Source: Psilocybe cubensis
Taxonomy: Eukaryota
Length of the DNA: 64,000 bases
Assembly: GCA_017499595.2 (NCBI GenBank)
Contig: CM039004.1
Location: 2,666,001 to 2,730,000 of the forward strand
Direction: 5' to 3'
Program-made: the position numbers and the translations under genes
Shown here: piece after piece, positions 11,016 through 42,368 of the stretch
Layout of the letters: every line of letters starts with the position of its first letter
How positions within the stretch are numbered: position 1 is the stretch's first letter
The notes under the pieces: model-generated
What the model was told of the DNA's origin: nothing
The model's database searches: none
Seen by the model: the letters and a program-made list of their open reading frames with translations, nothing else

Positions 11016-11027
11016 GGTTATGGGCCC
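11016..11027 (+). promoter_or_regulatory. Primer-binding site of the copia/Ty5 type (internal initiator tRNA-Met fragment)
   Basis: GGTTATGGGCCC follows the LTR directly, has no TGG start, and matches the Drosophila copia-type PBS. Confidence 0.8.
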
Positions 11028-11090
11028 CGGCCCCATTGCTTAAACTCAAATTAAAGCCTTACCTCGTGAATTTCTGTACCTACTGTCAAC

Positions 11091-15686: not shown

Positions 15687-15693
15687 GGGGGAG

Positions 15694-16110
15694 TGTGAGA
15701 TATTCAATACGCAAACGCATCGAGCACTCGGCGCGCGTACGATAGCCCTGCCCAGGGCATCCACAAACCGCCACAAGTATGTACATCTTATTATCTGTAT
15801 TATACCTTTTGTTCTGTACATTCTCGGGCGCTTTCGCCACTATTCCATTTCGGTTTCTCAGTTATTCCACTGTATATACTCCGTGTTTCATAGTTGTTAC
15901 TATCTATGTACATTAGCTACACGCGCATATAAATGCGCGTGCTTCGTTCTCTCGAACCTCAGTCGTTCTGTTCGAACACGACTGAGGTGAGATTCTATTA
16001 TTTGTTTCTTATTTACTTCTCACTTACTTTGTACAAAGCTCGTATTAGGTATTTACTCAATATCAGTCGTTCTGTTCGAACACGACTGAGCTCGTATTAG
16101 TTTTCTTACA
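15694..16110 (+). repeat. Copia 3' LTR
   Basis: Direct repeat of 10599-11015, preceded by the PPT and followed by TSD TCTAC. Confidence 0.97.
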
Positions 16111-16662
16111 TCTACCTCTACCCGCTCATATAGGACTGTGGACGCTACGGTACTTGGAGAATCTTGGTAACCCATGTGGATGAAATGGAGCCTTGTTTTC
16201 TTGGACTGCTTACGACCTCAGTTGGTCGACTCTCCAGCCATATCGCGTGTGCATATATGCGCGTATTCTCGCTCTTTTCGAGGTTGTTTGATGCTTCTAT
16301 TGTCTTTGAAGTCCATCTGGGGATTTCTTGTGCCATTTCTCTGCACTTTGCCCTCGCGTTGTCTAATTTCAAATGCTTGCAGAGGCTACGCGAGTTTGTA
16401 TGCGCGTTACCCGGCTCTGTGGGCGCATATACTCGCTGATTTTGGATGTATTTACTGTTTTGTCCGCTGCGCTTGGGGTTTGTGGGTCCTAGCTTTTGAT
16501 TTTGCTTGTGGGCTGTGCGTTATGGCTTTGCGACCCTTTTTGTGCGCATATATGCACTATTTTTTGCTCTGCTTACAGCCTTCCAATTGACTCTTTCGGC
16601 CGGCGTGTTTGGCTTTCGAGCTTTTTCAATGGGTAGATGGGGATCTGCATCACTTTACCCTG

Positions 16663-17096
16663 TGTCAGGGTTTCTCCAGTTTCCCCTCTTTATCTTCACA
16701 GAATTATCTTATCCTTTCATTATCTTATCAATTATCTGATTAGATAGTTTATTTCTTTCATCACAGCCTTCTTGCTCCACTTCTTTCTAGTAAATTCTAT
16801 ATGATTCCTAGTCTTACTCATCCTTTTTCTATATGATGTCACTTTTATTCTTTAACCTTCCTTTATGATGTAATGTAGGGAATATTCTAGAATAGCTGTA
16901 GAGTATAAATACTGGACTTGTAGGTAGCTGTAGCTTCAGCTTCAATCTCTTAGGATATCCACTATCATTGGTGTGATCTCTTAGAACCATTGAATCTCTC
17001 TCACTCTCTTATTCTCTCTTTGCTCTCTTACTCTCCCTCTGCTCTCTCTCTCTCTCTCTTGCTTAATCTTTGTTGGTGGCCTTGTCACACTGATTA
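16663..17096 (+). repeat. Gypsy 5' LTR, main part (last 16 bp displaced to 35230-35245)
   Basis: Matches 40719-41152. TATAAATA at 16904-16911, and a (CT)n tract near the end. Confidence 0.96.
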
Positions 17097-17322
17097 CATC
17101 AGCAATACCGGGGCCAAGTAGGTAATGATCCGTAGTGATACGTAATTCTGTAGTGCCCATAGTAACGGTCCCATTTGGGTAACACACACTGATGTACCTG
17201 TAGCTTGGTACCAACGTGACATGGTACTCTGTAGTGATCTGTATTGTAACGCGAGTGCTGTGTAGCGGCGTGTAGCATGCTTACCATGGTCCATACCCCT
17301 CTGTATACAACTGACATACAAA

Positions 17323-17393
17323 TTGTAGCATACTACCACAGATTTGTAGCATGCTACCACAGATTTGTAGCATGCTACCACAGATTTGTAGCA
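17323..17393. repeat. 21-bp tandem repeat (ttgtagcatgctaccacagat), ~3.4 copies, subterminal
   Basis: Directly visible; the core GTAGCATGCTAC is palindromic. Confidence 0.9.
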
Positions 17394-17661
17394 CATCATA
17401 ACACACTGCAAATAGGTACAAAGGCATATATAGTATCCACTTTCATTTGTATAGTGTTGTGTGGCTATTCCTGCAAGTGCCAATATCACACTGAAAACCG
17501 AACCATTTTTGACTAAAATGGGCAATTTTAAAAATAGATAATCTATGTTTGGATCGGACCAAACATGTTTCTATTAGTAGATGCATAACTATTAATACGT
17601 GACGATCTAAATATGGTATCTTCTAATCCACACCCGGCAGCTGCCCCGCTCATTCACCCAA

Positions 17662-20403
17662 CTACCCTTCTGGACCGTAATCTAGTTCCTCCTGTGGGAT
17701 AGAATGGAGAGTCATCCTATAAGGGTTGGGGGGGTTCTTCGTAGGCCTCATAATAGCACTGATTATGGAGATCTAAATGATGCAAAGAAAGAAATGAATA
17801 AAAAAAGATACACACCATCCTTCCTCAGCCACTTCCCTACATAAGCGAGCCAAGCGAGGACCTTGGTTCAAGGTATCCTTCTCTGCCTCTGCTGCAACCA
17901 ACATGCAGGCATCATACCTCAGGGAGTACTCCTCTCCCTTGAATTCAATACCCGAACACGGACCACCTCTTGCAGGGTCAATCCCATCCCTCCACTCCTC
18001 AAGACAGTTGTGGATCTACAGCAAAATGCTTGTTAGCAAGGCAGTGCCAATAGCAGGAGAGAAATCAGAACTACACAACTGGCCACAAGCGCAAATGCTT
18101 TGTGGGGAAGCGATGTCTTGAAGAAATCCGTCTTTGTCTCCAGACCTTTGATGGGGACTGCAACCCCTTTTGTAGGATGGTAGAAGAAGTCCAGACAGAT
18201 CTTCTTCACAAAAGGATGTCCAAATGGGACATCGTGATACTGGAAACAAATCAATGAGTGGTAAGCCAGGTAAAATGGACGGCGAACTCACTCGGGTTTT
18301 GGCAACACCCCGGTGGTATTTACCATTGAGTAGCCAATATGCTACCCTGTCCTTGATGTATTCGATCTCCCCCATCTGATTTTCAAACATATTGGGGTTC
18401 GCGGCGATGACCTCCGACGGGACTTCGAGGCCATACGCATTTTTGACCAGGGGTCTGATCATCGTCTTCAGTCTTCCCCGGAAGGTTGACGCGTAGACAA
18501 ATGCCTAATGAGAACAGACACGTTAGTACGATATCCTTAAAAGAACACGCTAAAAATATACCGTTACGGCGGTATTCCTGTCTAGGAGCGTTTTTTTCTC
18601 TGCAAAGTTATGTAAACCAATTAACTAAAATCACAGAAGACAGAACTTACTATCAGGCAACACTTTATCCGTGTTCATTCTTTCAAACACGGTTACTGCC
18701 ATCTTCACACATCCATCGGCGACTAATAAGTGATTTTCCCGAGTGGGAAAGGGGACCTCCTCTACTACATACAGGCACATCAGTTTGCGTGCAATTTTGA
18801 GCACATCTTTCCAGTAACCAGTAAAGGATGCAACTGAATGCTTGGATACTTCCCTAGCAGAAGAAGTACTGGACTTCTTATGAGCGATGTGTGCCTCACC
18901 AAGCACCTCATCATCGTCAGATGCTTCGTTGTTCTCCCTTGTCAAACCTTGGGATACGGCTCCTTGCGAAACAGCCGCCTTGCGCAATGCCTCAGGGCGA
19001 GGTGGCTTGTTCGCCCGATTACGACGACGGTGTTCTTGAAGAACATCCTCTACTTCCACAACCTATATCAATAATACATTAGCTAGACATTAAATACAGC
19101 AGAGAAATGATTACATGGGGGGAAGGCTGGCGGAGCAATGCCCTTGCTCTCCTCTCCTCTTCATCATCGGAAACTTCATCAACCACTGTCAAACATAGGT
19201 GGTAAGCAAACACGACATAAAGGTGGAGTTAAACCAACGCTGGGCAGCAGGCTCTTCATCATCTTGACCCGCGTCGTCGTAACCTTCATCACCGTCGACA
19301 TATTGGAGAGCTTCTTCATCCCCAATATTCTCTTCATCAATTCCTTGCATGCATTCGTCCCCTGATGCTTCCTCAGATCGCCTTTCACCGTCACTATCCC
19401 CCTCTTCCTCCTCCTCATCTTCCTCCTGCTCTATGCCTTCGTAATCTTGTTGCTCCTCCTCGTCTTGATGGCTGATGCTAGCCTCTTGGTGGGCGTTATA
19501 GGCTGCTGGATGCACTGGCTGTTGTACGGGGGCATGTTGTGTTACAGGATGCACTGGTTGTTGTACGGGGGCATCGTAGTATTGGACAGAATTCTCTGCC
19601 GCAGGGGCAGCGTAACGCTGAACAGGATTTGCTGCGTGTTGTACAGGGCGCGGGACAGGATGTGCTGCATGTTGTACGGGGCGCGGGACAGGATGTGCTG
19701 GCTGTTGTACCGGAGCAGCGGGGCGCTGGATGGGGGCAGTGGGTCTTTGGACAGCATGATCAAGCTCTGAGTGCTCCTGATTTCTCTGAGCTGCACGTTG
19801 GATCTGGACAGGAGGGGGGGCACCCTGAGATTGTCGTGGGCTTGGTTGGACTTGTTGGACATCCCAAGGAGCAACTGAAGGCGTTGGCCTTGGTTGCATT
19901 TGAATAGGGGGACCTACATGCGACACAACGGTAACCTAGACGTGCTTGGAAGATAGCAAATTTAAGATTAGAACAGTAGACTCACCCCATTGCGAGGTTT
20001 CTTCAAGGGAGGCGCCATCTCATTTTCAGGCATGGCGCTAGTATCCACATTGGCGGCCCTTGACTTCCTCTTCCCAGCCTTCTCGAAGTCAATAAAAATG
20101 ATGTTAGATGTTTTCTCCTGCCGAGCATTTACTCCACCAAGACCACGGGTGCTTCGGATAGGATGGCCATTGGGGTCTTTTTAATAAGGAGTTCAGTGAA
20201 TCTCAACAAAGAAAATGCTAGTACAGACCTGCTTCAGGAGCCTGAGGTGGCTCGTTTTCTGCCACGGAGCTCGGACCCTGTTCAACCTCTTGTCCTAGAT
20301 GGATAAAACATTAAGTATGCGGATGTAATGAGGATATATAGATGATACCTTCAACCGTGGCATTGACAACCGCCTTTTTCTTTTTGGATCCTTTAGGTGG
20401 CAT
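17662..20403 (-). CDS. Multi-exon transposon-associated protein, DUF6532-like C-terminus, Q/P-rich and acidic N-terminal half
   Basis: Starts MPPKGSKKKKAV. Exons include ORFs 19189-19926, 18631-19059, 18016-18462 and 18033-18254 (DVPFGHPFVKKICLDFFY..LPHKAFALVASC, then IHNCLEEWRDG). Family assigned from motif memory; ends approximate. Confidence 0.6.
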
Positions 20404-21197
20404 ATTGGGCTGGTTTGACGGTTGTAATGCAGAAATAGAGACAAGGGGTGGTGAATTATGTCAAGCTACGATCCGGAGGTATGCGAAATTAGCATCTTTT
20501 CAAAATTTAAGGCGACGGACATCAGTCAAAAATATATCGTGCCATATAGAAATTACAGGTACTGAAACAGTACCCCTATCTACTACAATATATCACATAT
20601 ACATTATAGTCAGATTCCATGTCCTACTTAGAGTTAAGTAAAGTTACATCTCAGAGGGGAAAAGACTGCACCTATCATGATCGCGGATTATCCTGAGGGT
20701 GCATTAGAATAGGTATTCCCCGACTAATGAGGGATACCCGTAGACGGGCGATTTCGAGCTGGGTTTCAAACAGAAGATCTTCATTGGATTTATATGCTCG
20801 CATAATGTCGTCCATATAACAACGTAGCTCTGCCTGAACTTCTAGACACCTCTGTTCAGTGAGTTGAAATTGGTCAAGAGCCTTTTTAACGGCCTCTATG
20901 CCTTGATTCTAGAGGAAGGTGGATTAAAACATGAAAATAGACCTAAAACGAAGAACTCTGCCTCTTCGGGTATGCTAGGGAGGCGGCGACTTTGAGGTTG
21001 CGAAGCGTTGTTGCTATTGGAATGGTTCATGATAAAGATAGGCAACAATTTGGTGTGGTGGTGGTGGCTTAAGTTCAAGACGATCAACACATTACGAACC
21101 ATTAGCACTGTTGATTGCCGAAATACACTTAAATAGAATGACATAAAACCCGTATATGTCTACAAGTCCGTGTTCGAGATACAAGTAATGCTGCACC

Positions 21198-23557
21198 CTA
21201 CATATTTACAACTTTGACACCACGGGACGGGGGGAAGATTTGAATCAAAGATGTTGTCGGAAAAGTTGGGAATGTATCACCGCGTTTCATACGAGTAACG
21301 GGATATTTATGTACAACGCAAATATCCTTGTCTATTGATCGTATCCTGAATATAATCCCCATTGAATCGCCCTCAAGCGGTGTAACGAAGTCGTCCTTTT
21401 TTACAGGATGAATTGGAAACAACACTGATTTCGGTAATGTCAGTGTACGTCCCAGTAATGCTAGGTGGGCAGTATCGTCGGTAAGGCTGAGAAGTTCCAT
21501 CGCCACTTGATGGTCGCCCTTGGATTTGTCTACGACTTTTAATCGTAATCCTTTCAGCTTATCGTATTTCGTATCTAGCCAGTGAGCGACGGTTGAGGGT
21601 AGTTCTGCGATTTCCACCGCCGAGTGTACAGGTATTGCTGAATACGGATTCCATGCAGGAGACAGAAAACTTGCTACTGTGGACGGCATTGGAGTTGCTC
21701 CACCAGAAGGCCCGGGGTCTTGAGCGGAATTTATATGTTCTCGGTTGCTTGAAACAATGTCAGTAAGCACCTGACAGTCAACGAATCAAGTGAAACCACA
21801 TACTGTATAATTAAATGTGATATTTTAATACGTTCCACCCTCTGGTTACGAGCTTCCAGCTCAACGTCTGCAAAGCCGTCGGGGGTAGTGCTTTTAACGA
21901 TGCCATAGTACCCCTTGAATGTATTATTCCCGACAACGATGACACTCAAACCTATATAGACGTCGTTGTGGTCTCTTTCTCCAAGCTTTGACGAATGACG
22001 CTTTCGCGGGCGAAGAGTAGCATGGGCAGGGGGGACGTAGAATATGACTGTGTGGATGGGCACAATGACCTGAAAAATGTGTTGAACACTACTGAGACAA
22101 AGAGAATGACAGTTCACCTACTTCGCGTTCGTGCTCTGGGGCGATAATACAAACAGATCTTCCATCAAAGTCTGACACCCATCCATGGAGATCTTTGTGA
22201 TCCCCTTCAACGACTTCAACACTATCGCCTATCTGGAAAGCTGCACGTAGATCGTGTAGTGCAACTGCTTGTGTTATACCTTGGGAGGGGATGTGCACTT
22301 CCACCTCAGCGTCAGAAACACTCTTGACCGTTCCAAAAAGACCTAAGTATTCTCCACCAATAATTTTGACTCGATCATATCGTTTCAGTCGAGTCATGGA
22401 GATGGCTTTCGAGGCTTGCGCTAAGGTCTCCGTCGTTACAAATGGACACTCGCGAAATTGCTCCAACTCGGACGATGTTGGGAGGACATTGGAAAGATAT
22501 TTGAGATCGATGGCGTCGAAATCCGTGATAATAAATCCATCCTGGAATATCCTGTCGAGGTGCGATTTCTTGATGTTGTCCGGAGGTCTGGGGATAAGAA
22601 CAACACTTTTCCGACCCTGGAATGTGAACACAAGGCCGGTAGCATTTGCGTAGGTCGTCCAAGCCTTACGCTTTCCAGCAACCTTGACCCACGATTGGTC
22701 TTCAGGGCGTGAGGGTGGGGGATGAGATAGGATCTCCATACATCTCTCCGAGGATAGCCTAACTAAATGTGTCGGATTAAGCTCTCTAACGAGGCAGGCT
22801 AACGTATGCGCATGTTGCATTGATGGCGCCTCGACGTAGATTCTCCCAGGAATTGAGGATTGAGCGAAGACAGACCGGGCAAGGATGATGGGAAATGTAG
22901 GGTTCGTTGACATCTGCATAATTTTGAAAGCGACGGCCTCTTCGTGTCCAACCTATCACTCGTAAGGTGATCAATAAATGCTGACTGAAGACTTATATTA
23001 TTTTTGCGTACCTTGCAACCTATTTCATACATGATATCAGTCGCGGAAGGCATATAATTATTATCACCAAGTCCTCCTGGTTGGGGATTGCCATATTTCT
23101 GTATAAGTTCTCGTGAACTAGATGGCTCTATATCATTGTCAGGACGAATTTTCATGCGTGAAGGCAGAAGCATGGGCAACAAATCGCTCCATTCATCAGC
23201 GTTATCTGTATTTTGCATGGCATGATATAGCCGAGAGTGTGCAACACGTTCCTCATCCTCAGAGAATTCATCGTTATCATTCACTGTATGTCAGAACCCA
23301 TTAGCATCAGTACATATTGAGCAGAATATATGTAAATTATTGGAACATACGTAGTTGGCCCCCTTCATAATCAAGCTCTTCCGAACTTTCATCATCATCG
23401 GAAACCGCTGCTTCAATGTCTATGAAGGGATTAATGTCCTGATTTTTTGAGATCATAATTAAATTTCCCTGAAGTTAGTGATTAGATGGAGGGTTGGATT
23501 AGTACACACTGTGCGGTTGCCTAGGCTGTCAAGTCGTCTGCGTTTATAACTAGACAT
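21198..23557 (-). CDS. Divergent Spt5-like protein (acidic N-terminus, NGN domain, several KOW motifs), multi-exon
   Basis: NPFIDIEAAVSDDDE resembles the Spt5 N-terminal motif. YEIGCKVGHEEAVAFKIM..SVFAQSSIPGRIYVEA resembles NGN. KOW-like motifs: YDRVKIIGGEYLGLFGTV, FQIGDSVEVVEGDHKDLHGWV, IGLSVIVVGNNTFKGYYGIVKS. GGATPMP..SPAWNP may be a CTR remnant. Confidence 0.8.
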
Positions 23558-23661
23558 TGTGGGTCTTAAAGACTGTTAATCGATGTTCATCTCACTTAAT
23601 TTATCATCTTAACTTGTGATAATTTATTTTTAGATACTACACAACCTATTACTATGATAAG

Positions 23662-23806
23662 ACGCTATGATGAACGGAAAGAGAAAACATATGGTGAGAA
23701 ACACGCTATTTCCGGAGCGATTCTTTAGGGAAACCTACCCTAAAGAATCGCTCCGGAAATAGCGTGTTTCCAACTTGATTGTTTTTCTTTCCGTTCGTCA
23801 TAGCGT
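23662..23806. repeat. Long inverted repeat / hairpin
   Basis: Perfect 33-bp stem 23698-23730 / 23738-23770 with the loop AAACCTA, plus an outer imperfect stem acgctatgatgaacggaaag / ctttccgttcgtcatagcgt. Confidence 0.95.
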
Positions 23807-24176
23807 AGTACCCCTCCCCATAGATTTAACATACATTCTAATAAAATAGACATAGACAATACTCTAGACACTCTATAATAGTTTTCGTTCAGTTAAAATT
23901 CATCTAGTTGAAAATTTGAGACACCAGAAAAAAACACACAAAAAAAAGTAAGTACCCAAAGAAATAGAATGCAGGGTGAGACGTTGAAGTTTTGTAGTGC
24001 AAGCCCAGAAGATTTCCCCCGTTGCCCGACTCCAAGCTGAAGAAATTCTGGCGTTTCCCTTCGAAACGCAGGTCGTTCGTCAGACTCTGGAAAACATGTT
24101 GCCAGAGTCGCACCCACTCCGCGTAGGTCTTAATTGGATTGCCATTTATGGTACTAATATCAAGTTTCTGTAGAGG

Positions 24177-27100
24177 ATGGTGGATTTCCTCCGACGATAT
24201 GAGGACTTCACCTTTTTGAATTACGATGTTTCATCATCGAGCATGCGAGCGGCCATCAAGTATAGGCAAAGCTTGGCTGCCCTTCAGAACAGCATCGTAG
24301 AGACACCCTGCGTAACCTCGGCTACATGGGAGCAGGCGGGTAGCTTATTTGCAGCATACCGTCTACTCGATCTCGTAGCGTTGTGGCCAGCAGCCTTTGG
24401 ACCATCGTTGCCGGTGACCGTGCCCCTGAATGAAATACAGGCCAGCACAGGAACTAAGGAAATATTTTCACGGTTCAAGGTATGCGATCATGAAGTCACT
24501 CAATGTTAATTCTTAATTTTCAAACAATTATTGTAGCTTGTAGATGACTTGAAGGACTGGCCGGCAATGCTCTGCTCTGCCAGGAAGCGCATCCTCAGAG
24601 CCGACTCTAAGTCGCACAGAAACATCAACACCCCTTCTATCAGTGACACGCCGTCATCCGCTTTCACCCAGGGCGGGCCCTCGGAATCAACGCTATTACT
24701 CTGTCTGGCGCGTAACCACTTCAAGGGTGTTGTGGGGAAAATAATCGGGAATGTGTACTGCGCCTCGCTACACTACCAAATCTTGTCAGGAATGCGCGGT
24801 ATGAAGGACGATGAACACGTTCTACCAGACATTCCAACGGACACGGCTACTCTTGCAAATCTCTAGTAAGTTTTCTTTCCTCTATTCATTGATACAATCT
24901 GCTCAACATACCCTAGTGCAAGCGGCCATCCTGATGCTGCGTTGTTCCTCTCAGAGGTCACGCCATCTCATTTAAAAATTCCTCTGCATGTCGCCCTTTT
25001 CATATCCCCCATCCTTCTTTTTGTGAATAAATCTTGGTATTCTAAGAAATGTGACCGGGAGCAGCTGCTTAAAGTAGGTGTATCCACATCCTCCCAGTTT
25101 AACTTGGATTAACGCACTCCTTTAGGCCTCAAAAGCGCTCGGTAATTGTCGCCCCCGTGTTCTGCGTGAAGTGGAGATGGAAATTTGGAAAATCATTGCA
25201 GCGCAAAATTGCGACATCCAGTCAGCCTTATATAAACTTGTTATCTCAGACTGCTGGATGGAATGCGAGCGGGTAATTGCACAAGATCCCGCGTTTCACT
25301 TTTTCATATGTGTGTTCTACGTACTGTAACAAAATAACAATTTAAACTAATAATTGGCCAGCGTCAACGAGCAGCGCCGAGGTTACAGCAAATTCTAACC
25401 TAGCAAGGCGCAGCACTGAACCACACGGTAAGTTATAAGCAAAGTCTGCGTCAATTACATGATTTAAATCCGTTTAAAACAGCTCAACTTCAGACCGTTT
25501 CCCATCATGGTGAAAAAACCACCTGTGAAGGGTCCGACGCAGACGCGGAGGGTGACGATGATCACGAAGTGGACACGACAGAAATGGTCAGCATGGGTCA
25601 ACGGGAGAACGGGGACAATACGGTCCCTACCTCAAATATACAGCCTCCGGAAGACACGTCTTCAGTGGCTGGCAAGGATGTCAGCATGGGTCAACAGGAG
25701 AACGGGGACAATACGGTCCCTACCTCAGATATACAGCCTCCGGAAGACACATCTTCGGTGGCTGGCAAGGATGTGCCCACGGACGAGCAACCTGGTTTGC
25801 CGCGGAGTGATGATATTGGATCTGGTCTACTTCAGACTGAGAATACTGGGCCCTCATCTGCAGGGGATTGTGAGATGAACGTCGATCCGGAGCAAGCTGA
25901 TGTCGACCATCAAATGGAGGATGGTCCACATACCAATGGTCCAGAAAATTTGGGAGATGGCGGGGCTGGACAAGGAGCTGAAGGGTCTTCTGACGAGGCA
26001 AATCGTATGTCGGAAGTTCACGAGGGCGAAAAGCAGGGGCAAGACGGAGAACGACCCGACGAGGAGAACCGAATGTCAGAAGATGGTGAGGAGGAAAGGC
26101 CAGACGACAGTTCGTCGGACAATGAGACCGAGAAGCAGGGGCAAGGGGATGTTCCACCAGTCCAGGAGGACAGAATGTCGGTCGATGGAGAGGGGGTAGG
26201 CCCAGAGCAAAACAATGATTCCTCAGACATGGAGAGGAATACATTGGAAGACAGCCAAGGCGAAAAGGAGGGGGAGAACGCACCTCCTGCTCCTCTTATT
26301 TTGAGGATTCCTCCTGTTTCCCAGATAAACAGGAGCAAAAACACCACGGCTGACTCCTCTCAGAAAGGGAAAGGGAAGGGCCGGCAGGGCCTTTCCAAGC
26401 GGCCTCCCAAACGCAAGCCGACGCAGGCTACCGACACATTTGATTCGGACGACGACCTGTGTATTGATGTCGATCTGTACGACAGCAACACCACCCTTGA
26501 TGTCGTCAGCACTCCGGAGAAGGTGTATGGCACCAAAGTTTGGTCCACCTACAACGGTCGTGGCCAACTTAAAAGTTTCTGCGTTGTTGCCCATGTAAGT
26601 CATTCTCGATATTGATTTTTTCGTCATTTATTTATTCTCCAAACAAGAGTCAAGCCGACGTGGATCGTGTTGAAAGGGTTCTGGAATTGGTCGAGAGTGA
26701 CTACGTCGATGGAGTTCCATTGCACATAGCACGTCCCGAAGAATCATGTTTTGCGGTATTCGACCGCAGCACCACGAAATCCATGTATCTGATGGAGTCT
26801 TTCTCTGAAAGGAACGTCGTCCTTATGTCTCCTTCTCAAGAGGAGTCTATTTCAACTTGCTCCGACGAGTTCTACAGCCAGGTACGTCGCCATATGGGTG
26901 ATATGACGAGCACCAGGTCAATCCAAGGTGTGTTTCCTCTTCGATGTTTTGATTTTTCTTTCTGCGTCTCATGCTAATGGCCGTAACAGATATGTCGACC
27001 ATGTCGTCTAACCCCATCGAGAGGATTAAGCGTGGGTCCCTCTCTCAGGTCATGGAAGCAGCGAGGATGAAAGGCAAAAGAGGAAAGATCCTCAATGCCC

Positions 27101-28659
27101 TCGACATCCCTTTACCTCATGCAGGCGCTCACTCTTTTGACTTGAGTACTGAGGCGGCTGCTCTTCGGGCTACATCTGGTAGCTGGAAGTATAGTACCCC
27201 CGTCCCATTTGGTGATATGTCATGGGGACTCGTAGCTACAGAGGGGGCATTTTCAGATATCCATATCGATGCCAATGGTTTCTGTTCCTTCATCCAACCT
27301 CTTCATGGACTGAAGCTGTGGATTATCATGTATCCCAGACGGTTGGATGTTGACCTTTCTTCTGACCGCCGTGTATTTCTGGGAGACAAGCTGGATTACG
27401 GGGAAATGCACCACCAAGACTGGATTTACGAGGCGATTGTTCTCGATAACCAGTCAGAACTGTATGTGATTTTTGAATGTCCTACCCATTTGATTATATT
27501 GACGCTACTTTGAAAAACAGCTTCATGAGACCGAATACTCTACATATGGCGTATTCTATCTCCTCAGTGGTTTGCCGTGGCGGACATTTTTACTCCTCCA
27601 CTTCCTTCGAAGAAACCCTGACAGGAATCATTCACTGTTTTACCGCTGGATACAGGGCAACGAATACGAATCATTCAACGTCCCGATTTTTCCTGCAGCA
27701 AACCATACATTGGTTCTACAAGGTTTTGGTTGAAGGTGACAGCGACCCAGAAGGTATGAGGTTTTTTACCGTTTCCTACAAGATATCTGATTCTTTTCTT
27801 CTATTTTCTCTCAGATTTTTATGAAATGTACCATGTCCCATTCTACAGTACGCAGTCCGGATACTCGAGCTTGATAGCTCTGTGCGTGTGCATGATCTTG
27901 GCAAATGCGCTCGACTACGAGACCTATCGAAATCCCGATCAGATGTTCTCCACCAAGACTTCGGCACAGTTAGACGCATGGATGCGGTGGGATACCAACA
28001 GCCTGAGCGACGAAGAGCGCAAGGCGTGCATCTTTGCCCGTGGCGAAGCCTTGGCTATTCTAGAGTGGCTATGTCATCGCACGAAGTCCATCCACTACAT
28101 GATTGAGACGGACAAAAACAAGGATGCACAAAATATCATGGCGACAGAAAAGTTCCATGAAATGATACTTTGCCGCTATGCCCGTATGATTCTAGCCTAC
28201 GACGCAGAAGCCAAACATAACAACATTGGTGGTGCCCCTTGCTGTACCGACACCAGTTTGCTTTTTGTCCAGCTTCAGGGCGTCTGCAGCGGAGAATTGA
28301 ACAAGGTTATATGTCGCAGTATCGACCAGCTTCCTCGTTCCTCGGTCCCAAAGATGCTCAAGTTACCCGTAATCACTCTCATTGACTGTGATGCCTGTGC
28401 GGATTCCTCAACGCAATTGAGTAGGTGGACCAGTGTCTGCCTTTGGATATTCACTAACCACGTCACAAACTAGGAACTCCCAAGGAGATTCTGGAACTTG
28501 GTACAAGTGTGAGGGATAAACTGTATCTGGATGGCATGAAAGTCAAGCTGGAGAGCACAAATCCGAGTACGTGTGTTCGATTATGCCTTTACGTCGCAAA
28601 TGCTTATCTCTTCATCAGAATCAGAGTCTGTTCCGCCTTCTAAACGACGGCGACTTTGA
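24177..28659 (+). CDS. Multi-exon JmjC-domain (Fe/2-oxoglutarate oxygenase) protein with a long acidic disordered region
   Basis: WGLVATEGAFSDIHIDANGFCSFIQPLHGLKLW and FMRPNTLHMAYSISSVVCRGGHFY give HxD..K..H in JmjC spacing. The last exon ends PPSKRRRL*. Exons are linked by GT..AG introns; the 5' end is uncertain. Confidence 0.75.
25587..25772 (+). repeat. 93-bp in-frame tandem duplication (31 aa)
   Basis: VSMGQ(R/Q)ENGDNTVPTS(N/D)IQPPEDTSSVAGKD occurs twice. Confidence 0.95.
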
Positions 28660-29130
28660 TATTGTACAACACATTGACACACATCTTGATTTACATACAT
28701 GCCATGTTTTATTTAGTACTGAAAGGCGTGTATGTCCTGTAACATAATGACGATTGTTTTATTATCTGTAGTTGTGTGCTGCTCGTATCGCCAGACCAAT
28801 ACGCAAATTCTCGCTGGGATGAAAGCTTCTGGCTTTACTGTAACTGCTGTGCGTTTGAATTTATCATCAAGGTCAATGAAATCAACTAACTTACGTTTGT
28901 TGATGCTTCTTCCACCCACTTCAAAAAATGTGTTAGTGTCTTTGTTCTGGTGCGTATATACAGTAAAGCTCTTCCGAAGCCCTCCTTGGATTGTACTACG
29001 GATTGGTTGAATACTAACCCATGTGAAATTTGTTTGTATTAACGGAGACATAATCAGATAACATTTATAGACCCACTGCACGTTACTGAACATTACATTA
29101 TCAGTTTTTTTTTCGTATCTTCGCTTTTGT

Positions 29131-32100
29131 ATGAGTCGTTGTTTCAACATGGGAAAGGGCAAGGGCAAGAGAACTCAGGAAATCTGTGTGCGTTGTCCTC
29201 GATGCAACAAGCCATTCGCTAAGCATGCAGATGTCCAAAATCACATCAATCAACCAAAATCGGCATGTCGTTTTCAATATGAGAACGTTATGCATTTTCA
29301 GTCCAATCGTTCAAGCTCTACATCTAGATCAGCAACCCCCGTATCTCGAGACCCTTCTCCCGAAATTGGTAATTTTATGGAAGTGGACTATATCGACAAT
29401 TTTCTTGGCGCGTCATCAGAGATGGAAGATGACCCACCCCCCAAGGCATCAAAATACAACTATCCGTACGTGAAGGAGGATTATAACGGGGCTGGAAGAG
29501 CATTTGGAACAGGCCTTACATTCATGGATCAGCTCAAACAGGATCAATTCGAACCCCAGCGGGCGGAAAATTTGTACTATCCTTTTGCCTCGAAAGATGA
29601 ATGGGAGCTCTCCCTGTTCCTACTTCGCTCTGACATGAGCGTAGGAATGCTGAATGATTTTTTGAAACTTGAACTGGTAATTGAGCGTACATTCCCATCA
29701 TTATTTATTTCAGCTGAGTCGATCCCGTATAGATAAAAAAACTCAACTTGTCCTACAAGTCGGCAAAAGATCTACGCAACCGGGCAGAGATCCTTCCCTC
29801 TGGTCCGCAGTGGAAGAGTCAAACGATCATACCAGAAATACCAAGCAAAAATCAGCTAACGCTTTTTTACCGCGATGGATTGGAATGTATCAAGGCGCTT
29901 CTCATCAGTCCCTTGCTCCAAGATAGCATGCACTTTAGCCCATTCAAGCTCTTCGACAAGTGCAACGAGATGATGCGGGTATACACTGAGTGGTTTAGCG
30001 GTGACATTGCGCATTTTATGCAGGTTAGTAGCAATGCCTTTGTCCAAGTTTGACGACAGTATAACAAGGTTCCCAAGGACCAGCTCCCAAAAGGAGCAAC
30101 ACTTGTACCTCCTATTATTTCCACGGATAAAACCAACATTTCCAACATGACCGGAGGCCGTGTCGCCTACCCTGGCCTTATCAGCATTGCCAACATAATG
30201 ATGAACGTTAGAAACAAATCGTCAAATCATTTATTCCTTCTTTTTGTTCTTCTTCCCATACCAAAGTTTCTTCATCGCTCCAAAGCTGTGAATGGGATGA
30301 TGGCAGCACGGCTATATCACCAGTGCATGGACATTGCTCTAGAATCGGTCAAACAAACTGCGAGGGTGGGAACCACCATGGCAGATGCATTGGGGAATAA
30401 TCGTTTCTGCTTTACACCGCTTGCTGCCCTTATCGTTGATACTCCAGAATCTGCTCTGGCGGCTTGCATCGCAGGATCCACATCCTCTGTGACGTTGGCA
30501 CAATACGAGACGTTTGGGGATTCCTTTCGCCACCCTTCCCGAACTGCAGATCATACAATCAACACCATCATGGCCATCAACAATGTTAAGCCCCCTAATC
30601 ATCTCGAACCATATCTAAAAGAAAGCAAAAAGCACCGTCTCAATGGGGTTCACCTACCGTTTTGGAGAGATTGGCCCTTGTCTGATCCTTCTGCATTCCT
30701 TACGCCTGAACCCCTTCATCACTGGCACAAGATGTTCTGGGATCATGATGCAAAATGGTGCATTGCTGCAGTCGGAGGTTCCGAATTGGATTTTCGATTT
30801 TCGATTTTACAGCACCGCACTGGTTTCCGACACTTCAAGGAAGGGATTTCTTCCTTGAAACAAGTGACCGGTAGGGAACATCGGGACGTTCAGCGATACA
30901 TTGTTGCTCTCATTGCAGACACAGTCAGTACACCCTTTATCTTAGCCATCCGGTCTCTGATGGACTTTCGGTATCTCGCACAATCTCAAACAATCTCCGA
31001 GGCAATGTGTCTCAGAATTGAGCAGGCACTGCAAGATTTCCATGCCAATAAACAAGCCATCCTTGACGCGGGAGCACGTCGAGGTAAAAAAAACAACCCA
31101 ATCGATAATTTCTATATTCCAAAACTCGAGTTTTTGCAAAGTGTAGTACACGCAATTAGACTAAATGGATGTGCAATCCAATGGTCTGCAGACACGACAG
31201 AGCATGCACATATCGAGGTGGTCAAAGCCCCTTCCAGTTCCAGCAATAATCAAAGATACGAGCCTCAAGTTTGTCGATACCTTGATCGTCGTGACAAATT
31301 GCGCAATTTCGATTTGTTTACAGCTATACGAGAAATGAGGATTGATTTTCGGGCTATACACTCTGCAACAATTACGGATGAGGAGGAGCAGGAGGAGGGG
31401 GATGAGGGGGAGGAAAACGGCGAGGTTGTGATGGACACAACGTCAGAACTTCTTTCAACAATCATGCCGATGACAACCTTTCAATCAGCAAAGTCCAATC
31501 GCATTGTGGATTACTTCTACAAAGCTAGTCTCTATGAGCGTGGCGTATTGGAAGGCCCAGTCCCCTACAGAACATTTTCTTGCAGCAAAAACGTTGTTGC
31601 CCATTTATCTAGGGATGCTAGTTCCAAAAGATTGCATATCGACGAGGTTGCGAGCATTTTTAAAATTCCCGACCTACGACCAGCAATTGCCGATTATGTG
31701 TCACTCATCAATAAGGAATCAAATCCGAGACAGACCAATTCTCGAGGTTATCACATCAAGGGGATAACTGGCAGGCGTGTTTCTCCTCCCGGTTGTCCGT
31801 TGCCGTATTCAAAACTTGAGGTATGGCATAAGGTCCGTATACAGTCGACTGCGTACCAATACCCTCATGAGATCCTGGAGGCAGTCACACTTAATGCATA
31901 TCCGCCATCTAACAAACATCCTTTTGGATACTTCGATTCAGCAATCATAAACGTGGATGAATCTGAGGAGTGGCCTCGCAGCGGGCTTCAAGGTAGTACT
32001 TCTTTGTGACTTTTTTCCGAACCCCGTTGACCAGCCAATATTGTAGGCCATTCTGTCGTCGACATTCGTATTATTTTTCGCATTGTCGGAGAGACACCCA

Positions 32101-32435
32101 GTACTGTGTCTCCCGATATTACTGGAAGATTTCTCGCATACGTCCAACGTTTTGAGGTTTTAAATCAGCCACAGTCTCTAGGTTCTGCGATCCGTGGACC
32201 TTACCCAGAGCCAATAACCGGCATGTATAAATTAAAACGAAGTCAACGTACAGATAACACCATTATGGGTGGAATTTTACCATTGAATCAAATACGCTCC
32301 CTGGTTGATCTGGTCCCTCAGATGGGCGAGAAGGCAAGGCGAAGCCTTACTACACATAACAGTCATTCCACTAGCACCGAGTTCCGATTAAACAAATATT
32401 TTGACAAAGAACTCTATTTGGCCCTGTCATCATAA
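29131..32435 (+). CDS. Plavaka-family transposase with N-terminal zinc finger (multi-exon)
   Basis: CPRCNKPF..HINQPKSAC, YYPFASKDEWEL, LFYRDGLECI, RVYTEWFSGD, IISTDKTNISNMTGGRVAYP, PLAALIVDTPE, TPEPLHHWHKMFWDH, TGFRHFKEGISSLKQVTGREHR, FYIPKLE, WSADTTEHAHIEVVK, FRLNKYFD. Confidence 0.88.
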
Positions 32436-32475
32436 CATATCCACCTCAGGAAACCCACAAAGTTTTCAATCCCTA

Positions 32476-33010
32476 ATGCACATTGCCACTCAAATTATCA
32501 CCCAACACGCCGGCCTCGTTGTACACAAAGACGACTCGGATCAATATCAACAGCCGCTTCTCACCAGTCCCGCTTTCTCACACTGTATCATCGTCACCTA
32601 CTGCATATCCCTCCATCCATCTCATCTCTGCAGAATCAAGTCGTTCTCGCTCATCTTCCGCTCACCACCGCCCAAACTCCAAAGGATTCTTCCCAGAGTG
32701 CCTCTTCCTCTAAACAAAAATTCGCCTCCAGTCTTGTCGGTCCGTCCTGTCCTCAATTAGCGCCCATCTTGCCGGAGATACTCACTTTATTTTTTCAATT
32801 CCATTGCAGATTAAGCTGTCAGCACCTTATCTGAGATCTGGCGCCCTCAAGACATTCCCTCCCTATTTCTACCCACTGAAGTCCTTTGAGGATTGAGGAC
32901 ATCTGGAAACATACTGCAGACAGCACTATGTTATCTCGAAGCCATTCGTCCCAAGGTTCCCAAAATTTGCAAGAGGAAAGCATTGGCCTCTCTCCCACAA
33001 TCCATACCTG
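32476..33010 (+). pseudogene. Disrupted partial duplicate of the cyclin 5' region
   Basis: About 435-bp offset copy of 33061-33300 with the same intron (32740-32809), an in-frame TAA at 32812 where the second copy has CAA, and a fragment RTSGNILQTALCYLEAIRPKVP. Confidence 0.7.
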
Positions 33011-34119
33011 CCATGCCTCTGTATCATTACCTACTGAATACCCCTCCATCCGTCTCATTTCTGCAGAATCAAGTTGTTCTCACTCATCTATTCCACCCAC
33101 CACTGCGCAAATTCCAAAGGATTCTTCCCAGAGCGCCTCTTCTTCTAAACAAAAATTTTTTTCAAGGCTTGCCGGTCCGTCCTGTCCTCAATTAGCGCCC
33201 ACCTTGCCGGAGATACTCACTTTATTTTTTAAATTCCATTGCAGATCAAGCTGTCAGCACCTTGTCCGAGATCTGGCACCCTCAGGATATTCCTTCCGTG
33301 TTCCTACCCCCCGCCAAAGTAGGGGGTAGCTCTTTTCCTCCTACTCATTCCCGTCCAACTTCCAAGCAGATCTCTTCCGATTTGCAATCCATAGCGTCTC
33401 ATACACATCCAATACATCCACACAACAGTCATCCCTCCGTATCCGGCCATAACCCTTCCCCGACCCTCTTGCTTGCCTCGGGCACCAAATCCGATCAGAT
33501 ATTACCCCTCAAGTCTTTTGTTTATAAAGTCCTTCGCCACTCAAGGACATCTAAAAACGTACTGCAGATAGCACTATGTTATCTAGAATCCATTCGTCCC
33601 AAGGTCCCACAGATTTTGCAAGAGGAAAACATCGGCATTCGCTCTTATGCTCAGCCCAAAAGCAGTATTCAGAAAGCTACCCCAGAAGAGCTGGCGATGG
33701 ATGCTGAGCTTACTGCTCTTGAGAACTCCGGCAAGATCAACATCATCAATAATTTCATTGACAATTCTATGCAAACATTCCGTGTTGCCGATTCTGGTTC
33801 ACAAGATCTGGCTGAATCGTGCATCTATCCACAAGACTCTCTGTCCAGCGTAGATGTGCAGGTCTCAACGGCTCCTCTTTCCACCACCCTTTCTTTGCCA
33901 TCTCCCCTCCTGTGTCCCCGTAGAGCCTTTCTGGCATCCCTCATCCTGGCCTCCAAATTTTCACAAGAAAAGTGTTATTCTAACCGTGCTTGGGCAAGGT
34001 TATCTGGTCTCCCACCTCGTGAAATTAGTCGCTGCGAACGTGCCCTCGCACAAGCCTTGCAATGGCGACTCTGGGTCGGCAAATGCGCCTTTGGTGAGAG
34101 TGCTGCAACTGCCACATAG
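33011..34119 (+). CDS. Pho85-cyclin (PCL-type) family protein or fragment; intron 33175-33244; start codon unclear
   Basis: Cyclin box LKSFVYKVLRHSRTSKNVLQIALCYL and LLCPRRAFLASLILASKFSQEKCYSNRAWARLSGLPPREISRCERALAQALQWRLWVG. No clear in-frame ATG was found upstream of the box. Confidence 0.7.
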
Positions 34120-34363
34120 TCTCAATAAGTTTCAACTTTCACGACCGCGCCATGTAGTACGCATTCTCAATAATCACTCTCTTGCTTGCCACCACTACGC
34201 GCGCTCCTCCCGCATTCAGTTAGATAGGCATCTTCTTAGACTAGCCTAGAAAAATCTATAGAACTTTGTTTTACGTATACAGAACCCCTGAAGAATTTTT
34301 ATACCCGCGAAGTTTGTTTTCAGCTTGAATTCCAACTACGACAAAGTGAGCGTATCACACACC

Positions 34364-34914
34364 ATGCAAATCATCAGCTATGAGGAAATTTTACGAATCG
34401 AAGCAGAAGTATTGGCCCCTACTTTCCCAGATCTAATACATCCTACAACTTTCCCAGAGGCCGCCTCACTTGCTTCTCAAAGACAGCAATACGACTTGGA
34501 AATGGCTCAGTTAGTTGAGCAGACCCAAAAAATGGTCCTTTTGACCGAGAACAGGCTGATACTGGCCATCCTGGCCCTTTTCAACGAAATTAACTGGACC
34601 ACCCTGGACCCAAGGTTACTATCGTTGGCTAAAGCCAAGATTACCGAGGGTGACCAGTGGCTCAAAGCACGAGCCGTGAGTTTTCTGTTTCTTCAAGTTT
34701 CAAGTTGATACTCTTGCTTAAGATAACTAGGAGGAGACACTTCGGGATGCAGACTCAGGCAGCCCCGAGCACATATTGACCCAAGGGATGTCCATTATAG
34801 CCAACGGCCAGATTCATATTCGAACGGTAGAGGTGAGTCACAGTGATAACTACTTTGTTTCTACACTTTCTTAGTAATGGGCAGGATCTCATACGAGAAT
34901 GTCAGGATCATTAA
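34364..34914 (+). CDS. Small hypothetical helical protein (probably 3 exons)
   Basis: ORF from MQIISYEEILR with GTGAGT donors at ~34676 and ~34833 and matching AG acceptors; no recognisable domain. Confidence 0.4.
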
Positions 34915-35247
34915 TAGGGTCAAGATACTACATTGTAAATAGACACTTAATTGCCTTTAAAAATGTACATTTTATTGCTTGATATGATTGAAGAGCTTTA
35001 CTGAGACCAATCACATTGGACATCAAACTCTCCTAAGTCTGGAATCGTACATAGAGATAGCTAGGAAAATCCAAAGCTCGCAGTAGTAATGTTGGAATGC
35101 TACAGAGCTCAACGGAGCATCCCGCCGATGACACATGACGCTATACTGTCTACAGCCCACTTTGATGCTACATCCGGTTGGCAGGACAATACGTTGAGTT
35201 ACCTTCGAAAATCCGGATTTACTGATGTATAGTGTTGCCCTGACAGA

Positions 35248-35258
35248 AGATTGAAGCT
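35248..35258 (+). promoter_or_regulatory. Self-priming PBS (Tf1/sushi type)
   Basis: AGATTGAAGCT is the exact reverse complement of LTR 16938-16948 (AGCTTCAATCT), 34 nt downstream of the TATA start. No TGG tRNA-type PBS is present. Confidence 0.8.
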
Positions 35259-35736
35259 CTCTCAAGACAACTCCACCATCTCTCTTTCAACACCAAACTC
35301 TTCACCTCTTCAACCTCTTCAACACCATTACCTCAACCTTCTTCCTCCACTTCCAACCCACCAACCTCTTCATCAACCTCTCCACCAATCTTCTTACCAA
35401 TCTCTACATCTCCACCAATCTTCAACATCCTCCTCAAGACCTTTCCTCAAGACCTTTGGCTCATCATCTTTCCTACTCTCTGTTGTGTGCTGTGTGTGAA
35501 CTTAGTAGATAGGGATACCAACTGTTGGGGCAGACACAGTCCTACTAGTGTTCTGTTTTTGGTGGTCTAGGAAATATCCAGTAACCCTGTGATCCTAGGT
35601 TTAGAGCCCTGAGTGGTGTGACAACTGGGTATCCAGTAGATAGATATTTTTTTAGAATACTTAGTATAGTTTCAAGGGCACTTTCAGTAGATAGCTTCTC
35701 CCACACACACATCAGAGAGCCTACCTACCCCTACCC

Positions 35737-36840
35737 ATGGACATGGACCCCTCCCAATTGCCTCCCACCACTCCTTCTGTGGAAGAGCTCATGCATCAGG
35801 TCCAGCTCCTTACCCAAGAGTTGAATTTTCTTAGACAGCAGCAGCAGTCATTATCCACTCCACCACACCCTCAGCAACCAGTCAGTCAGTCACCATCACC
35901 ACCACCACCACCTGCTGCTCTAGATATTCACTCTTTCCCTACCCCTCATGTTGCCCCTTCCTGTTCACACTCTGCCATTAAAGTCTCACCTCCAGATCCA
36001 TTTGATGGTTCTATGGAGAAGGCAGAAAACTTCCTCAGTCAGCTTAAATTATATTTCTATGGGAAAGGGATTACAGATGACTTTCAGAAAGTTATTTGTG
36101 CTCTATCTCATATGAAAGGAGGTACTGCTGGGAAGTGGGCATATGAGAAGACTAAAGTAATAGACAATGCTCAGTCCCAAGAAGGTCTTTGGGCTGACTT
36201 TGTTTATGAATTTAGGGAAGTATTTGCAGATCCAGACCCCTCCAACACAGCTAAGCATAAAATGCACATGCTCAAGCAAGGCAGACAGACTGCTGATGAG
36301 TATGTTGCTAGCTTTAGGGCTCTGATCTCAGATACTGGGTATAATGATGCTGCTTTGGTAGACCAATTCAAGGCTGGGCTTAATGAAAATCTCAGGAATG
36401 CAGTCTATTATGTTCCTGACATGCCCAAAACCTTGGATGGATGGATTAAATGGAGTACCAGGCTAGATAGGCAGTGGAGACAGAGTGAGGCCTTTACCAA
36501 GTCTCTTTCCTCCTCCTCTTCTTCTCCCTTCCTTAAAGCCCCAACTCCCAAGGCTATTTCTAAGCCTACTCCAAATCCTCCAGTCTTTTCCAATAGCAGC
36601 TCTAGGACCTTTGGTGCTCAGGCAAAGCAACCAGATGTAGTTCCCATGGAGGTTGACTCTGGATGGAAGTCAGTTAGGCCAATTGTTTGCTTCAAGTGCA
36701 GAAAGCCTGGTCATAAGGCTGTAAACTGCAGGTCATCAGTTAACATCAATGCTATGACCCATGAAGAACTGGCTGACTACTTTGGGAAATTAATCTTGGA
36801 AGGCAAGGAGCAGAAAGATGAGGAAAAGAAAAATTTTTAG
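35737..36840 (+). CDS. gag: Gypsy Gag
   Basis: KVSPPDPFDG, ALSHMKGGTAGKWA, LKQGRQTADEYVASF, VPMEVD, zinc knuckle CFKCRKPGHKAVNC. Confidence 0.93.
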   Translation: MDMDPSQLPPTTPSVEELMHQVQLLTQELNFLRQQQQSLSTPPHPQQPVSQSPSPPPPPAALDIHSFPTPHVAPSCSHSAIKVSPPDPFDGSMEKAENFLSQLKLYFYGKGITDDFQKVICALSHMKGGTAGKWAYEKTKVIDNAQSQEGLWADFVYEFREVFADPDPSNTAKHKMHMLKQGRQTADEYVASFRALISDTGYNDAALVDQFKAGLNENLRNAVYYVPDMPKTLDGWIKWSTRLDRQWRQSEAFTKSLSSSSSSPFLKAPTPKAISKPTPNPPVFSNSSSRTFGAQAKQPDVVPMEVDSGWKSVRPIVCFKCRKPGHKAVNCRSSVNINAMTHEELADYFGKLILEGKEQKDEEKKNF

Positions 36841-40718: not shown

Positions 40719-41168
40719 TGTCAGGGTTTCTCCAGTTTCCCCTCTTTATCTTCACAGAATTATCTTATCCTTTCATTATCTTATCAATTATCTGATTAGA
40801 TAGTTTATTTCTTTCATCACAGCCTTCTTGCTCCACTTCTTTCTAGTAAATTCTATATGATTCCTAGTCTTACTCATCCTTTTTCTATATGATGTCACTT
40901 TTATTCTTTAACCTTCCTTTATGATGTAATGTAGGGAATATTCTAGAATAGCTGTAGAGTATAAATACTGGACTTGTAGGTAGCTGTAGCTTCAGCTTCA
41001 ATCTCTTAGGATATCCACTATCATTGGTGTGATCTCTTAGAACCATTGAATCTCTCTCACTCTCTTATTCTCTCTTTGCTCTCTTACTCTCCCTCTGCTC
41101 TCTCTCTCTCTCTCTTGCTTAATCTTTGTTGGTGGCCTTGTCACACTGATTATAGTGTTGCCCTGACA
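40719..41168 (+). repeat. Gypsy 3' LTR (intact)
   Basis: 450 bp, TGTCAGGG...CCCTGACA, followed by TSD CCCTG. Confidence 0.97.
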
Positions 41169-41251
41169 CCCTGCCCACCATCACTTTAGCTTTCGCACTC
41201 GTGGTATCTCTTGTGTCTGGATTATCATTGCATGGTCGATTACCCCTGTCG

Positions 41252-42360: not shown

Positions 42361-42368
42361 CAGCCATA

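Follow-up and report, generated by a model that had tools for sequence, protein, structure and literature searches.

What is the 18.1-kb sequence that splits a long terminal repeat (LTR) of a Ty3/gypsy retroelement in Psilocybe cubensis, and how did it come to lie there? The locus belongs to a window of 64,000 nt from contig CM039004.1, and all coordinates given here are positions in this whole window (position 1 is its first letter). An earlier annotation made from the letters alone, hereafter the sequence-only reading, had described the insert as a recently inserted Plavaka transposon. We found that, with a probability of about 0.9, the insert is an autonomous PlavakaB element, a DNA transposon of the CMCT/EnSpm-like DDE type that was recently inserted and amplified; its host is Psilocybe cubensis or a species very close to it.

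The ends of the insert can be read directly from the host retroelement. The left junction in the 5′ LTR reads ...cacactgatTA followed by CATCAGCAATACCGG, and the right junction reads CCGGATTTACTGATG and then TAtagtgttgccctgaca. At the homologous site, the intact 3′ LTR reads ...ctgatTAtagtgttgccctgaca / ...cacactgatTAtagtgttgccctgaca, with a single TA at 41151-41152. Because the intact LTR has only one TA, the insert comprises 17097-35227 and is accompanied by a TA target-site duplication (TSD). Its boundaries and its TSD are thus base-exact in the window, and the 2-bp length of the TSD is established at one insertion, namely the window copy. The element begins with CATCAG and ends with CTGATG, and its 15-nt terminal inverted repeats (TIRs) match at 12 of 15 positions. 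Furthermore, the degenerate terminal 15-mer CATCAGYAAWWCCGG occurred twice in the window, both times at the element ends, where 0.06 occurrences were expected; two matches were reached in one of 100 shuffles. The boundaries, TA duplication and 12/15 ends proposed in the sequence-only reading were borne out by the comparison with the intact 3′ LTR and by the read breakpoints at 17097 and 35227 (see below). In addition, TGTAGC repeats lie next to both ends in inverted orientation: seven of the eight forward copies in the element fall within its first 300 bp, and two of the six reverse copies fall within its last 130 bp. These subterminal repeats are putative transposase-binding sites.

The host retroelement also gives a relative age. 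The LTR part 16663-17096 was identical to 40719-41152 (100% over 434 bp in a self-BLAST), and the remaining 16 LTR nucleotides (35230-35245 and 41153-41168) were found identical by reading, giving 450 of 450. The LTR termini are TGTCAGGG...CCCTGACA. The label gypsy is appropriate, because the open reading frames (ORFs) of this element match the Pfam families of Ty3_capsid, reverse transcriptase (RVT_1), RNase H, integrase and chromodomain in gypsy order. Thus, the Plavaka insertion postdates a very young gypsy insertion, and the jump into a young retroelement that had been proposed from its identical LTRs is upheld.

The insert encodes a predicted Plavaka transposase. ORF 30054-32006 matched PF18759 (Plavaka; Iyer et al. 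2014) with E = 5.1e-64 and 217 bits over positions 103-325 of the 325 in the profile, and ORF 29733-30050 matched positions 1-99 of the same profile with E = 1.1e-16 and 61.4 bits. Both lie above the gathering cut-off of 26.3 bits, so the Plavaka identity claimed earlier passed the profile check. PF20722 (DUF6830) also matched the transposase (E = 3.8e-45). A three-exon model with its ATG at 29149 is open over 922 aa and shares 97% identity with the transposase half of P0002, an annotated database protein of 1,973 aa. The in-frame TGA at 30051-53 was considered as a nonsense mutation and ruled out: it lies within a GT..AG intron of 36 or 45 nt that begins at 30024 and is spliced out in the annotated homolog; a further intron of 60 nt may lie at about 30207-30266. 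ORF 32031-32432 directly follows the transposase and is conserved there in 15 of 28 related metagenomic loci, and it is therefore taken as the last exon; the exon structure of the transposase is conserved in 15-23 of these loci. The gene occupies 16-18% of the element length, in keeping with the earlier estimate of under a fifth. Judged from these matches, the element is a Plavaka transposon with a predicted uninterrupted transposase.

To what extent the 18 kb is a single unit can be seen from public sequencing runs, nine of which (from three studies) contain at least 95% of the sampled words of the element. Two raw Illumina runs (X13 and X14) and two contig sets (X6 and X10) were mapped onto 16111-36110. 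In the two raw runs, the match ended exactly at 17097 in 217 and 199 reads and exactly at 35227 in 214 and 230 reads. The unmatched parts past both termini agreed only at 0.41-0.42, and therefore the same two ends adjoin many different sequences. Furthermore, the joint 17094→35228, which skips 18,133 letters with 2 letters fitting both sides, was found in 939 and 912 reads and also in one 955-nt contig of X10. This joint represents many gypsy LTR copies without the insert, and it confirms the empty-site sequence. In X13, the depth was 193-308 per read direction in each bin of 17445-34786, against 31-36 in total in the flank (16132-16202), a ratio of about 16x. Similarly, the X6 contigs had a depth of 178.6 versus 10.8 for the flank contig (about 16.5x). 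The depth of about 16x was even over all 26 bins within the element in both raw-read runs, cargo included, and therefore the whole 18 kb is the repeated unit. There are about 16 near-identical copies per single-copy depth. The earlier description of a giant, cargo-carrying element thus holds for 18,131 bp that contain other genes and show even depth over their whole length.

The copies differ little from each other. The X6 contigs (0.6-6.4 kb) differed from the window by 0-4 letters. In X13, 98 places across the whole 20-kb stretch varied in at least 10% of the reads, and 81 of the 98 were transitions (C>T 30, G>A 23, T>C 17 and A>G 11); this excess could perhaps come from deamination of methylated cytosines in repeats. 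Because about 16 near-identical full-length copies are present in independent isolates, the family amplified very recently. In addition, reads with the joints 33025→16663 and 17096→33021 represent a gypsy copy inside another Plavaka copy; the joint 17096→33021 carries the 16 letters of the LTR end between its sides, and the pair 33021/33025 implies a 5-bp TSD. The gypsy-in-Plavaka and Plavaka-in-gypsy insertions together indicate that both families were mobile in the same period. LTR ends of the same gypsy family were also joined to the internal Plavaka positions 22474, 17621 and 34075 in other copies. In 7-19 reads, a 58-bp segment (30401-30460) was replaced by 3 letters, marking defective copies. 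As a separate observation, run X10 is labelled as a different organism (organism D) and contained pieces of the element at 3-8x, identical to the window, together with the empty LTR at 13.8x. These pieces seem to stem from a small amount of the same species mixed into the sample and not from a shared element.

The termini place the element within a described type. Plavaka families of Agaricomycotina have been split into PlavakaA, with TGT..ACA termini and a 2-bp TSD, and PlavakaB, with 5′-CATCA..TGATG-3′ termini and a TSD of 2 or 3 bp (Kojima 2025, Biology 14:1741; PMC12730594). The window element has CATCA..TGATG termini and a 2-bp TSD, and it also falls within the 5′-CA..TG-3′ termini and 2-5-bp TSDs of the CMCT clade, which comprises EnSpm, Mirage, Chapaev, Transib and Plavaka. 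Thus, the element is, as far as its letters tell, of PlavakaB type by termini and TSD and Plavaka by PF18759. It resembles the PlavakaB families of PMC12730594 in transposase, termini, 2-bp TSD and Agaricales host. However, no TET/JBP gene was detected by Pfam in the window element, though the PE-type enzyme with HxE used by the TET-positive families published there would escape Pfam; and ORFs like those for Spt5, JmjC, cyclin and DUF6532 are absent from the main text of that paper. Plavaka elements of the red alga Bostrychia moritziana are similar in size (17.4-19.1 kb versus 18.1 kb) and carry, besides the transposase, three accessory genes, with predicted chromatin- or DNA-modifying roles as here and with inverted or tandem repeats adjoining an accessory gene (bioRxiv 10.1101/2025.02.11.637652). 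Nevertheless, the accessory genes reported for the alga (DNA methylase plus SET, ParB-like plus 2-oxoglutarate (2OG) oxygenase, and one unknown) contain domains that were not found among the 115 ORFs of the window element, and the algal copies are mostly degenerate, in contrast to the near-identical Psilocybe copies. EnSpm/CACTA elements share the DDE transposase clade, CA..TG termini, short imperfect TIRs, subterminal repeat motifs and large elements carrying a second gene; they differ in having CACTA instead of CATCA and a canonical TSD of 3 bp instead of 2 bp, and the window transposase matches the Plavaka model and not the EnSpm models. Curated agaric Plavaka elements with PF18759 and characterised TIR motifs are also known as MarorPlavaka from Marasmius oreades, where no Plavaka transposition was seen in the study pedigree (Hiltunen et al. 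2021, PMC8290104; PMC9674265). The sequence-only reading had held that the ends, TSD and size of Plavaka were little described. This did not stand, since PMC12730594, PMC8290104 and the Bostrychia preprint already describe them, and the element is a recently amplified addition to a known type. For Psilocybe cubensis itself, no paper on Plavaka was found in the literature on its transposable elements, judged by titles and abstract starts.

Relatives in metagenome contigs, scanned with the main transposase exon, comprised 28 loci with 38-61% identity. Fifteen of these loci include the last exon, and 11 of them have termini of the type CATCAGNAA... (reading inward) 0.3-3.3 kb downstream of it. 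An alignment of seven such ends showed that CTGATG is invariant and that similarity ceases directly after it, which confirms, at the level of aligned sequences, CATCAG as the family terminus. An exact 31-mer of the 5′ end of the element had 0 matches in the metagenome contigs, and the CATCA-type TIR pairs with TSDs in the 28 loci were mostly noise from CATCATCAT coding repeats, with similar counts in controls. One locus (L012) has the 3′ end CATCAGCAAAACCGG, identical to the 5′ TIR of the window at 14 of 15 positions, which pairs with an upstream CATCAGCAA and has AG at both flanks. This candidate for a full element (1202-9408, TSD AG) was rejected, with ORFs for V-ATPase subunit d and ubiquitin lying inside; either its 5′ end is false or host genes were captured.

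The other genes of the element were surveyed by searching its 115 ORFs of at least 60 aa against Pfam. Besides the transposase, the families found were Spt5-type NGN/KOW and DUF6532, with sub-threshold cyclin matches. No retroelement or second transposase domain was found among these ORFs. There was also no Tet_JBP match, though the PE-type TET/JBP of Agaricales (HxE) would escape Pfam, being undetectable without structure-based methods (PMC12730594). The Spt5-like gene matched KOW2_Spt5 (1.2e-13), KOW (9.5e-8) and Spt5-NGN (7.8e-5), and its next exon matched KOW5_SPT5 (1.9e-6). Its domains follow the Spt5/NusG order, NGN and then KOW, and a search against the PDB gave 14 Spt5 sequences (best E = 2.3e-10); a comparison of the Spt5-like exon with longer proteins gave no match. 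The ORF at 33196-34116 probably encodes a PHO80-like cyclin domain, as a feature search scored 0.93 to PF08613 clusters (200 of 256 features shared). The DUF6532 match lies just under its threshold, and the literature on DUF6532 yielded only a domain-count listing.

The large accessory protein consists of a conserved N-terminal region, an acidic disordered middle and a C-terminal region with HID...GLKLW...H, a putatively JmjC-like pattern. JmjC proteins have a JmjC/cupin fold with an HxD/E...H iron triad and a 2OG-binding Lys, and the candidate metal-site residues in P0002 are H838 and D840. Annotated Psilocybe cubensis proteins are 96-99% identical to it, and a paralog (P0005) is 55-62% identical, with conserved N- and C-terminal regions, a middle that is not conserved, and no HxD motif. 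A language-model feature search linked the C-terminal region to clusters named JmjC at 0.93. Against Pfam, P0002 and P0005 matched no oxygenase family at E up to 10, and a profile search of the C-terminal alignment against the PDB gave 0 matches at E up to 10. An AlphaFold2 model of the 608-aa JmjC-like region from a 2-row alignment was unusable, with a predicted local distance difference test score (pLDDT) of 32.5. The 403-aa acidic ORF, a mostly disordered query, found only two Psilocybe proteins among 1.84 billion representatives, and the C-terminal region of P0005 found only P0005 itself and P0002. This protein is the only candidate of the element that resembles a 2OG oxygenase, and it has HxD versus the HxE hallmark of the PE type. 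In the public annotation, P0002 is a single "hypothetical protein" that joins the products of the large accessory gene and the transposase gene from another copy; it belongs to a 90% cluster with 39 members, and the family is systematically mis-annotated.

Two repeats lie inside the element, a 435-bp direct repeat at 32583-33309 and the palindrome listed in Table 1. The latter is variable among copies, with loose read ends at 23728/23730 that agree at 0.98. About 40% of the reads at its centre (219 of about 500 in X13) run into other sequence, the X6 contigs break there, and the two ends of this other sequence are each other's reverse complement. This points to a longer hairpin or fold-back insert that either is present in many copies or has been lost from the window copy.

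Table 1. Features of the Plavaka element and its host retroelement in the window
Feature	Position	Strand	Remarks
Ty3/gypsy chromovirus hosting the insert	16663..41168	+	LTRs, gag, pol, Pfam domains
gypsy 5′ LTR	16663-17096 and 35230-35245	+	split by the Plavaka insert
gypsy gag	35695-36840	+	
gypsy pol	36822-40718	+	
gypsy 3′ LTR	40719-41168	+	intact
gypsy 5-bp TSD, CCCTG	16658-62 and 41169-73		
Plavaka DNA transposon, whole	17097..35227	+	18,131 bp; empty-site comparison, read ends, even read depth
TA TSD, left copy	17095..17096	.	single TA in intact 3′ LTR
TA TSD, right copy	35228..35229	.	empty-site comparison and read joint
5′ TIR, CATCAGCAATACCGG	17097..17111	+	
3′ TIR, reading inward, CATCAGTAAATCCGG	35213..35227	-	same terminus kept in related loci
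5′ subterminal TGTAGC(AT) repeats	17199..17393	+	includes 21-bp x 3.4 tandem array at 17323-17393
DUF6532-like gene ORFs	17776..19062	-	ORF 18019-18504(-): PF20149, E 7.2e-5, 23.2 bits, cut-off 24
Pro/Gln-rich, acidic ORF, 248 aa	19192..19935	-	no Pfam match
Spt5-like accessory gene, multi-exon	21201..23290	-	NGN and several KOW
145-bp palindrome	23662..23806	.	69-nt arms, 87%; between divergent Spt5-like and putative JmjC-like genes
Large accessory gene, ~1,300 aa, multi-exon	23988..28640	+	upstream of the transposase
Predicted Plavaka transposase gene	29149..32432	+	exons 29149-29676, 29733-30023, 30060-~31.9 kb, last within 32031-32432
Probable PHO80-like cyclin ORF, 307 aa	33196..34116	+	Cyclin_N E 1.5e-3, Cyclin E 3e-3, both below threshold

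The ends could also be parsed as ACATCAG...CTGATGT, that is, as a blunt insertion without target duplication, and this parsing formally fits the empty site ctgattatagtg. It is very improbable, since the reads of other copies cease to match at 17097 and 35227 and never one base outward, the base following CTGATG differs among related loci (G, T or A), and PlavakaB elements have been published with 2-3-bp TSDs (PMC12730594). For the same reasons, namely the breakpoints and the published family termini, the parsing as TA plus CATCAG is preferred. A different doubt concerns the size, which is unusual for cut-and-paste elements and could, together with the internal repeats, speak for a composite in which a smaller Plavaka core was swollen by nested insertions or by an assembly join. 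We regard this as having hardly any chance. The depth is even over all 26 bins in two raw-read runs, contigs from a third run keep the order of the window with 0-4 differences, the 115 ORFs of at least 60 aa include neither a retroelement domain nor a second transposase domain, and the terminal motif occurs at only two places in the window.

More weight must be given to the possibility that the extra genes are inert passengers, fragments of host genes that the element picked up by chance, like those in Pack-MULEs or CACTA captures. We consider this a serious contender, though short of an even chance. In the flanks of the 28 related transposase loci, 13 accessory-protein queries detected no relative by that search. 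The 137 flank ORFs of 21 loci contained KOW in one lineage only (L002/L003), and there was no JmjC, cyclin or DUF6532 match. The loss of HxD in P0005 and the sub-threshold cyclin and DUF6532 matches point in the same direction. On the other hand, all copies retain the whole 18 kb at even depth, the accessory ORFs are long and open, and a paralog conserved in its N- and C-terminal regions and not in its middle is what is expected under selection. Moreover, the exceptional lineage, with about 53% transposase identity to the window element, has an Spt5-like ORF 2.3-2.4 kb upstream of the transposase. The ORFs of L002 and L003 are 90% identical to each other (L004 is identical to L003), match Spt5 chains of the PDB with E = 2.9e-6 and have sub-threshold Pfam matches to KOW and Spt5_N; their alignment to the window protein is weak, but it is collinear over the NGN and KOW parts. 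Because an Spt5-like gene thus also stands beside a 53%-identical transposase in soil-metagenome contigs, it may be a recurrent partner of PlavakaB. The wider proposal, that the PlavakaB lineage carries a transcription and chromatin toolkit made up of the Spt5-like protein, a JmjC-like oxygenase and a PHO80-like cyclin, with the Spt5-like gene as recurrent partner, is tentative and at present rather doubtful. The accessory-gene set may be new, especially the Spt5-like gene with two PlavakaB lineages. No literature joining Spt5, DNA transposon and accessory gene was found, and a wider literature check is still needed.

For the autonomous PlavakaB transposon that we favour, the following course of events can be proposed. 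A transposase of about 1,000 aa, with an N-terminal zinc finger, the Plavaka core and DUF6830, would recognise the 15-nt imperfect TIRs and the subterminal TGTAGC repeats, excise the element and re-insert it with a 2-bp staggered cut. In the window, such a cut would have duplicated TA within the 5′ LTR of the just-inserted gypsy element. Both the binding sites and the cut geometry are deduced from the sequence. The whole 18.1 kb would travel as one unit with five or six other genes, which may aid transcription of the element or its evasion of chromatin silencing, in parallel with the TET/JBP genes that other PlavakaB families carry and with the accessory genes found in Plavaka of the red alga. 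The family may still be active today, and its near-identical copies fit recent activity.

Several observations weigh against parts of this reading. The window copy has at least eight private substitutions relative to nearly all reads, one of them (30468) inside a transposase exon, and this copy may itself not be competent. In 22-27 reads, an internal deletion of 1,374 bp (29411→30786) removes part of the transposase and marks at least one defective copy. The transposase gene has a predicted N-terminal CxxC...HxxxH zinc finger, and C(2)C and H(3-4)H motifs are given for the CMCT clade (PMC12730594). In the 922-aa model, a plain pattern search found CxxC only at residues 13-19 and no Hx3-4H, with HHWH at 493. 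The 5′ termini of the related metagenomic loci were not found. The JmjC-likeness of the large accessory protein is a putative lead from one feature search and a sequence motif, and any function of the accessory genes is pure conjecture. The sequence-only reading had further expected the ends to recur with TA at unrelated loci and empty sites to exist. Both ends do abut many flanks in the reads, but more than half of the expected 3′-end reads diverge directly at 35227, and therefore most other copies are not flanked by TA, which is no fixed target; two X6 contigs read through TA and diverge at 35230. Likewise, empty joints are abundant, but they stem from other LTR copies and do not represent a presence/absence polymorphism at this locus.

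The surroundings contain further repeats. A complete Ty1/copia element (10599-16110) ends 550 bp before the gypsy element begins; its two LTRs of 417 bp show 100% identity, and it has ORFs for gag, integrase and RVT_2. Its position beside gypsy and Plavaka therefore indicates a cluster of very young insertions. Just past the gypsy 3′ LTR, a 2.5-kb stretch (41246-43812) is edged by 278-nt inverted repeats (71%) and contains nested near-perfect inverted repeats of 54-57 nt; it is possibly another TIR or fold-back element. Furthermore, three homologous segments of about 1.2-1.6 kb with 66-81% identity, starting near 900, 3225 and 8465, lie within 900-9950 and resemble a small tandem gene family.

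The element is not the first to establish Plavaka ends or TSDs. What it offers is a complete PlavakaB element, predicted to be autonomous, with its pre-insertion allele in the same window, base-exact. Because many published Plavaka copies are degenerate, it is a good natural system for Plavaka transposition. It is also useful for the annotation of Psilocybe genomes, where copies are now mis-annotated as fused hypothetical proteins. If the toolkit proposal were true, these genes would enable transcription to run through an 18-kb element or would help it to evade silencing by heterochromatin, and a transposon-encoded Spt5 paralog, conceptually like the plant silencing factor SPT5L, would serve the parasite. 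The accessory genes, if functional, would extend the list of host-factor mimics carried by DNA transposons.

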